Shown one piece after another: positions 24,559 to 25,375 of a stretch of DNA of 64,000 nt (positions are counted from its first letter, which is position 1; each line of letters begins with the position of its first letter). The position numbers and the translations under genes are program-made. The notes below the pieces were generated by a model that made no database searches, was not told the DNA's origin, and was given only the letters and a program-made list of their open reading frames with translations. Source of the DNA: Eledone cirrhosa (taxonomy: Eukaryota); NCBI GenBank assembly GCA_964016885.1, contig OZ024764.1:23126001-23190000 (forward strand), written 5' to 3'.

Positions 24559-25375
24559 AATACCAGAGGACATTGGCATTAAAGAGCATGTTACATCAGA
24601 CATATCCTCAACATTAACCATTTCTAATGAAAGATACTACCCATCATTTTCAAATAATTTTGAAAACACTCAACACTTTGAAGGGATTTAGTAATATAAC
24701 TAAATTTCTCAGTATTAAGCTGCTATTTGGAACATAACTTTGCACAATTTCATGAAGTTATAATGGAAAGTCTTTAGATAAATATAAAGACTGGTATGAA
24801 AATGATAAAACACTTTTATATCAGTTGTTTCATCAACACCATTATTTAAAGACTAAAGGAAGCTGTTATACAGAACAGATACAACCTTGTTTATATAAAT
24901 CTATGGGAGAAATACTGGGAAATATTTCTTGTAAACTCAATAACACTTCTATTCTTTGCTGTCTGGAATATGTAGAAGATACAAAATAAAGCTGAAGAAA
25001 TTTACAAATGATTTTGTAAGATCTTCATATATTGACAAAGATGATAGTTGATGGAATTACAGGAGTAGAAATATTTCCATTATTACAGGAATAACTAATC
25101 AAATAAAAACCAGAAAAATTAGATTCTTCACTGTCTGGAATATGTTCAAGATGATTTTATATGTATATTAAACTTGAAGACATCTACAAAACAGTTTGTA
25201 TCATCTTTAAATATAAAGAAAGACCAAGTTGATGGAAATATATCTGGAGGAATATATTTTAGGAATAATATTATAAACATAAAGAAGAAAAATATCCATA
25301 TATTAAGAGGAGAAAAATATTAAAACTGTGAATTATGTGAGAAACTGAGGTGATTGATATCTTTTAGTAGGAGAT
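24559..25375 (+). pseudogene. Decayed N-terminal coding region now forming the leader of ZNF-2
   Basis: Colinear peptide blocks split by stops and frameshifts: IPEDIGIKE, EHNFAQFHEVIME, WYENDK, CFINT, KEAVIQ, GNIS, CLEYV, KYPYIKRRKILK, ETEVIDI. Confidence 0.65.

Follow-up and report, generated by a model that had tools for sequence, protein, structure and literature searches.

A Probably Untranslated, Rearranged Leader Upstream of an Octopod Zinc Finger Gene, and a Short N-Terminal Peptide in Its Paralogs

Introduction

Does the long leader upstream of a tandemly duplicated C2H2 zinc finger (ZNF) gene of Eledone cirrhosa hold the remains of an N-terminal effector domain, or is it untranslated sequence? 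Large lineage-specific clusters of C2H2 genes, of which the C25 cluster described here is one, are reported from cephalopods, with C2H2 counts, clusters, and expression given in two papers (Albertin et al., 2022, PMC9068888; iScience 2025, PMC12513265); the portion of the second that was searched contains no mention of N-terminal, effector, UTR, or ZAD. Many ZNF families remain uncharacterised, as stated by Wells et al. (2023; PMC10547256). A sequence-only reading of the C25 locus had proposed that one leader spells, across frameshifts and stops, an ancestral N-terminal module of ~200 aa, the loss of which would have left this subfamily with finger-only proteins.

Results

The window, that is, the whole stretch of DNA that was analyzed (64,000 nt; C25:23126001-23190000 of the 3.0-Gb genome), contains four ~15-kb tandem units, each of which has one C2H2 ORF beginning MSKNIVKSP and is paired with a relic exon from another member of the family:

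9948..11190, + strand: unit 1; the leader is short (211 nt, 2 upstream ATGs), and the ORF (10159-11190) has 343 aa and 12 fingers
25376..26239, + strand: unit 2, C2H2-ZNF ORF (287 aa, 10 fingers), N-terminus MSKNIVKSP
39066..40308, + strand: unit 3; the leader is short (211 nt), and the ORF (39277-40308) has 343 aa and 12 fingers
57322..59336, + strand: unit 4, long leader (815 nt) and ORF 58137-59336 (399 aa, 13 canonical fingers and one degenerate)
409..760 (end approximate), + strand: relic exon of the second family member (leader and one broken finger)
12601..12854, + strand: relic exon of the second family member, truncated
27663..28010 (end approximate), + strand: relic exon of the second family member
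41252..41600 (end approximate), + strand: relic exon of the second family member

In unit 2, ten Pfam PF00096 stretches with TGEKP linkers lie in one open frame, which identifies it as a tandem C2H2 gene. The arrays, said earlier to keep 10-14 fingers open, are indeed open; the counts are 12, 10, 12, and 13 canonical fingers in units 1 to 4, plus the degenerate one in unit 4. Among the cluster copies, the contact positions of the fingers are highly varied and the scaffold positions fixed (125 quartets among 623 fingers). The array ends before eight fingers in 10 of 59 distinct cluster copies.

Genome-wide, patterns spanning the leader junction matched 146 long-leader and 74 short-leader copies (reversed controls: 0). 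The interval from 19.1 to 23.9 Mb of C25 holds all 74 of the short-leader copies, together with 99 of the 100 long-leader matches listed, and the 40 DNA matches that were scored have identities of 97-100%. One copy at C25:22242056-22242872, 0.9 Mb away, is 100% identical to 24559-25375 of the window over the leader and to the first 600 coding bases; it may represent either a very recent segmental duplication or an assembly duplicate, and there are many other near-identical pairs.

An 82-nt tandem repeat lies 3' of each finger ORF (11811-12323, 26889-27325), with 47/48- and 71-nt repeats beyond it, and a near-perfect ~605-nt tandem triplication built from 98-nt and 25-nt units directly follows unit 4 (59693-61359). 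Broken transposase-like frames on the minus strand, which we take to be hAT/SPIN-like, are co-duplicated with each unit (3026-4886, 14864-16333, 30624-32397). Reverse-transcriptase-like frames occur at 7837-9411 (minus strand), 41692-43377 (plus strand), and 61616-64000 (plus strand), the last of which has 795 open codons up to the window end and may, we presume from its motifs, be a young LINE.

Upstream of the unit 2 ORF, the following features were delineated, the leader copies by alignment to a profile of the family leader:

23767..24414, no strand assigned: intronic 39-bp tandem repeat of unit 2 (in units 1, 3, and 4 too)
24520..24558, + strand: intron 3' end with putative splice acceptor (tttcag, 24553-24558), kept family-wide
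24559..25375, + strand: long leader of unit 2, 817 nt, with 16 upstream ATGs and 16-24 stops per frame
24559..24625, + strand: partial copy 1 of the family leader (profile 61-127)
24626..24813, + strand: segment without match in diverged paralogs, containing EHNFAQFHEVIME and WYENDK; subfamily-specific as far as tested
24814..25114, + strand: partial copy 2 of the family leader (profile 91-407)
25124..25375, + strand: partial copy 3 of the family leader (profile 241-515), continuous with the ORF
24720..25325, + strand: 606 nt missing from the short-leader units, with short microhomology between the ends

A leader of ~385 nt is common to C2H2-ZNF genes on many chromosomes, and the unit 2 stretch consists of three partial copies of it, 190 nt of the 817 being unmatched elsewhere. 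The family consensus measures 383 nt from acceptor to first ATG, and diverged paralogs (70-90% identical, on many chromosomes) keep the same order of acceptor, leader, and fingers. In agreement with the earlier suggestion that the leader was largely deleted in units 1 and 3, 24720-25325 is absent from both; upstream ATGs number 15-16 per long leader vs. 2 per short leader.

Contigs of the sequencing runs X24 and X21 cover 24762-25104 and the joint 24719-25326, and these are not counted as expression evidence; among runs on record as RNA, none was found containing the leader stretch. An orphan copy on C7 (locus L063:4148-4628) consists of the leader's first 481 nt, has no fingers, and is interrupted by a reverse-transcriptase element. 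An upstream ATG at family exon position 9, which opens a uORF of a few codons, is shared by 31 of 36 diverged paralogs and has been lost in the C25 cluster.

All 13 of the peptide blocks previously read from the leader were found, in colinear order, within 24560-25402. Also confirmed were the doubling of the CLEY block (24960 and 25129), which is a DNA-level duplication with 68% identity, and the reappearance of NISS/NNN/HCLEYLQDDF words in the four relic exons. With the finger ATG as reference, the successive blocks fall in frames 0, 0, 0, 2, 1, 2, 2, 1, 1, 2, 1, 1, and 0, which amounts to seven switches: a 77-codon open stretch (24756-24986) contains WYENDK and GNISC..CLEYVED, and SCFINT and KEAVIQ are read from the frame adjacent to that of this stretch. 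The leader homology is real at the DNA level, and the protein reading adds nothing beyond it. The basic, NLS-like patch (KRRKILK) that had been attributed to the module falls outside the protein, because the alignment places it just 5' of the family's first ATG, and no confirmation was obtained for the octopus ZNF N-terminus that had been cited alongside it (EHKVKFxEVTME...PYIKKRR).

We analyzed openness and substitution rates in several sets of copies; the paralogs recombine, so that counts are non-independent and tree-based dN/dS is approximate. In the close set (89 loci examined, 85 parsed, 59 distinct), an in-frame stop occurs 1-8 codons from the ATG in all 59 distinct copies, and 54 full-length cluster leaders have 11-18 stops even in the best frame. 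In the diverged set (155 loci examined, 87 distinct with a match to the leader 3' end), none of the 87 has a leader open for at least 80 codons before the first finger, the longest open run upstream of the finger being 74 codons and the median 37. The consensus leader has 5, 10, and 8 stops in its three frames (23 in total), and several of these are kept in 28-33 of 34-38 sequences; the leader stops predate the family radiation.

Rates were estimated for 39 diverged paralogs (95 loci, of which 83 were parsed and 44 were non-redundant, minus one mis-cut and four near-duplicates). By counting, leader dN/dS is 1.11, 1.01, and 0.97 in the three frames (confidence intervals include 1) vs. 0.51 for the fingers, and codon-model profiles gave 1.15, 1.0, and 0.9 vs. 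0.4. The corresponding likelihood ratio tests returned p-values of 0.08, 0.33, and 0.045, the last of these for the finger frame, with its best dN/dS of 0.9. Leader values were 1.05, 0.96, and 0.95 in 18 loci picked independently of leader similarity, and 0.81-1.15 within the subfamily (54 copies). Triplet indels account for 36 of 150 in the leader, and no codon periodicity was found there across the 39 paralogs, whose fingers are periodic (p 0.001). Because dN/dS is ~1, divergence is like that at four-fold sites (0.16-0.18 vs. 0.18-0.21; in the 18 independent loci, 0.177 vs. 0.175-0.21, at 63-83% occupancy), and frameshifts and deletions are tolerated, the leader is inherited, near-neutral, deletion-tolerant sequence.

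Several further properties of the leader were considered. Strong nucleotide-level conservation was dropped, given the near four-fold-site rates of the independent set, and A-to-I editing as a rescue of the stops was ruled out, since 114 of the 150 indels change the frame. For conserved RNA structure, 32 leaders yielded an empty consensus fold, in an analysis of low power in which the shuffles were empty too.

A profile of 13 unchanged leader fragments, compared with 1.84 billion protein representatives, gave two matches, of which one is true: CAI9742668.1 (P0001; E 4.5e-9), a hypothetical protein of Octopus vulgaris. This protein is a homolog of the leader but differs in being 96 aa long and fingerless and in running through three frames of the family consensus, and its end coincides exactly with a TGA that 28 of 34 paralogs retain; it is likely a gene model placed on the same untranslated leader. 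The other match, P0002 (E 9.5e-4), was rejected as a repeat protein of bacterial origin that is unrelated to the leader. No protein joining the module to fingers was found in the profile or word-index protein searches, the latter being a weak method which, with two leader fragments, gave no match. An Atlas search with the leader returned nothing usable, Pfam had no family for three leader fragments or for CAI9742668.1 (KRAB, SCAN, and BTB were not matched), and an exact look-up of 10 full ORFs in a sequence collection found 0. In the literature that was searched, no description was found of the leader or of the 33-aa peptide introduced below.

Local alignment distinguishes two types of leader 3' end: M, with a first ATG and 22 extra nt (26 of 39 paralogs), and X, which has no first ATG (13 of 39). 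Twenty-three of the 39 have, 33 codons ahead of the first finger, an ATG from which a peptide with the N-terminus MENELCE (or a near variant of it) stays open; this peptide is contiguous with the fingers in genomic DNA and has no separate upstream exon. The frame of this peptide is intact in 23 of 25 paralogs with the first ATG vs. 3 of 14 without it (p 1.4e-5, points not independent). Its first 20 nt have 65 genomic matches (controls: 0); among 30 of these pattern-found loci, 29 are in frame to the first finger position, as compared with a frame retention of 0.48 for leader windows, and 24 reach at least three fingers. One peptide used as query had 53 genomic matches, 48 of them within open frames of at least 218 aa, a figure biased to intact copies. 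The dN/dS of the peptide is 0.66 by counting (CI 0.45-1.01), 0.6 by codon-model profile (0.5-0.8; likelihood ratio test p 0.006), and 0.74 in the independent set; where the peptide has been lost, the same region has values of 1.15-1.3. Mean column identity is 58%, and M1, E2, L5, C6, E7, K11, S16, I19, and D20 are kept in 16-23 of the 23 sequences.

Pfam gave one unrelated weak match only for 19 of these peptides, and PDB sequences gave 0 matches to the peptide profile. The ZAD is defined by four invariant cysteines; of the 23 peptide sequences, 16 have C6 and 8 have C12, and there is no Pfam match for the peptide, so that it does not qualify as a ZAD. The lineage-specific 33-aa N-terminal peptide is real, under moderate purifying selection, and apparently undescribed.

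In X-type ends a second ATG is retained, 9-11 codons upstream of the finger. It occurs in 12 of the 16 genes that have no open peptide vs. 5 of the 23 that have one (p 0.0025), a distribution which suggests that both the M and X kinds are translated. On the leader tree, which has no outgroup, a single clade of X-type ends is rejected (AU p 3e-74), and their scatter indicates exchange between paralogs. The paralogs L101, L122, and L126 are mosaic: their 3' ends are X-type, and the leaders themselves fall among those of M-type genes. The two indels between the types sum to 18 nt, a weak hint that may point to a coding ancestor.

The C25 cluster is X-type in the copies read, and in unit 2 the end of the leader can be annotated as follows:

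25320..25375, + strand: putative relic of the N-terminal-peptide coding region (TTA in place of the first ATG, 22 nt missing, stops); X-type 3' end

The block ETEVIDI in this segment aligns with the M-type reading ESKRIDF, and any relic of coding sequence within 24559-25375 appears limited to it. The proposal that the subfamily lost an N-terminal module and became finger-only holds insofar as the cluster has no 33-aa peptide and encodes fingers alone; what is not supported is that a ~200-aa module was lost.

Discussion

The 817 nt are likely a rearranged, partly triplicated family leader, broken in all frames, that forms the untranslated 5' part of the finger exon, with the start at ATG 25376 and a finger-only DNA-binding protein as the product. 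In such a gene, an upstream exon would be spliced to 24559 and translation would begin with MSKNIVK at 25376; in long-leader copies, translation may be damped by the 15-16 upstream ATGs, as compared with two in short-leader copies. The diversified fingers may bind repeat-derived DNA, and finger-only proteins would act by occupancy or via partners that bind the fingers themselves. Repeat binding is put forward as the likeliest role because octopus ZNFs are predicted to favour transposon sequence, according to PMC10547256.

That other cephalopod ZNF proteins carry an intact ~200-aa effector module, lost in this subfamily alone, is highly improbable: although the DNA homology of the leader is family-wide and extends to O. 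vulgaris, the word-index searches are weak, and 50%-identity representatives could mask domain-bearing members, the leader is broken genome-wide, in all 87 diverged copies and all 59 close ones, its dN/dS is ~1, the O. vulgaris match is fingerless and frameshifted relative to the consensus, and alignment of leader fragments with 8000 candidate proteins of 169-2000 aa gave no match. An ancestral module of that length is not supported, given the same breakage in all paralogs examined, together with stops common to most copies; the sequence-only reading had itself named frameshifts in nearly all paralogs with dN/dS near 1 as what would speak against it, and this is the pattern that was found. A related explanation, that the leader is coding sequence which died before the family radiation and the split from O. 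vulgaris and is untranslated in all living members, is unlikely. Stop triplets in the consensus occur at 0.66 of the shuffle expectation (P 0.001), lower than in 43 of 43 intronic control windows (0.92 ± 0.12), which is a hint of an older coding origin, and the unit 2 copy can be read through with a minimum of 9 lesions vs. 13.3 in 1000 dinucleotide shuffles (P 0.028), its longest open stretch also standing at P 0.03. In the consensus, however, both measures are ordinary (5 lesions vs. 6.3 in shuffles, P 0.27; longest open stretch, P 0.71), the reverse strand is also stop-poor (0.81), and no source protein was found in Pfam, Atlas, or the 1.84 billion representatives; nor does the leader resemble finger repeats, the consensus scoring under shuffles and 3 of 39 single leaders reaching 11-14 bits. 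It is quite unlikely that much of the leader is intron, with an upstream coding exon spliced to a hidden acceptor near the ATG. KZNF and FZNF genes do have such a layout (PMC10547256), and AG-ending pyrimidine stretches are present at 24706-24712 and 25362-25367, but no acceptor other than that at the leader start, where the homology boundary also lies, is shared family-wide, the consensus is rich in purines from the last in-frame stop to the first ATG, the 25367 site is missing in unit 4, and ~10 kb of 19 loci contained no shared upstream exon.

For the M-type peptide, a dispensable, weakly constrained tail is more likely than an obligatory repressor domain. That it acts as a true effector by binding a cofactor, as FiNZ and KRAB do in other lineages, with X-type clusters as effector-less competitors, is a possibility rather than a probability. 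The frame kept in 29 of 30 loci, the dN/dS of 0.6-0.75, the nine residues kept in 16-23 of 23, and the 48 of 53 genomic matches in open frames are consistent with such a role, as are the predicted helix and the mildly acidic composition (6.0 acidic vs. 3.4 basic residues at positions 1-24); set against these, the helix is predicted at a pLDDT of ~51 (fingers, 78-88), nucleotide divergence of the peptide exceeds that of the leader (0.24 vs. 0.18, independent set), internal deletions are tolerated, conservation of E2 may come from start-codon context, and the peptide is absent in 16 of 39 paralogs, the fingers of which have the same dN/dS of 0.51. More doubtful is the broader scenario in which a 24-33-residue N-terminal helix of octopod ZNFs recruits a chromatin cofactor, paralogs swap leader 3' ends, and the ~220-copy C25 cluster is a competing, effector-less expansion. 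If true, such an N-terminus would have been invented independently three times, counting KRAB and FiNZ; the competitor idea requires both an active peptide and targets common to X- and M-type genes.

The FiNZ-ZNF genes of cyprinid fish (Wells et al., 2023; PMC10547256) are alike in having a short, lineage-specific, Glu-rich N-terminus with no known-domain similarity in a large, clustered finger family, and the lengths are 28 aa for FiNZ vs. 24-33 for the M-type peptide. FiNZ is highly conserved and occupies its own exon, whereas conservation of the M-type peptide is moderate, the peptide adjoins the fingers directly, and many members do not have it. The comparison with FiNZ applies to this peptide and not to the ~200-aa leader reading, and the 33-aa peptide may be regarded as a much smaller candidate octopus counterpart of KRAB. 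Tetrapod KRAB-ZNF genes share with the present family the tandem clusters, birth-and-death copies, and diversified contact residues; they differ in that here there is no KRAB match in Pfam and no separate effector exon was found.

These results bear on how cephalopod C2H2 proteins act without KRAB. They remove a false large domain from consideration, and they call for caution with short gene models, which get called on the leader. The testable candidate that remains is the 33-aa peptide, for which natural variants with and without it exist in one genome. Should the peptide prove inert, hundreds of octopod ZNFs would work by their fingers alone, which would constrain the mechanism by which they act.
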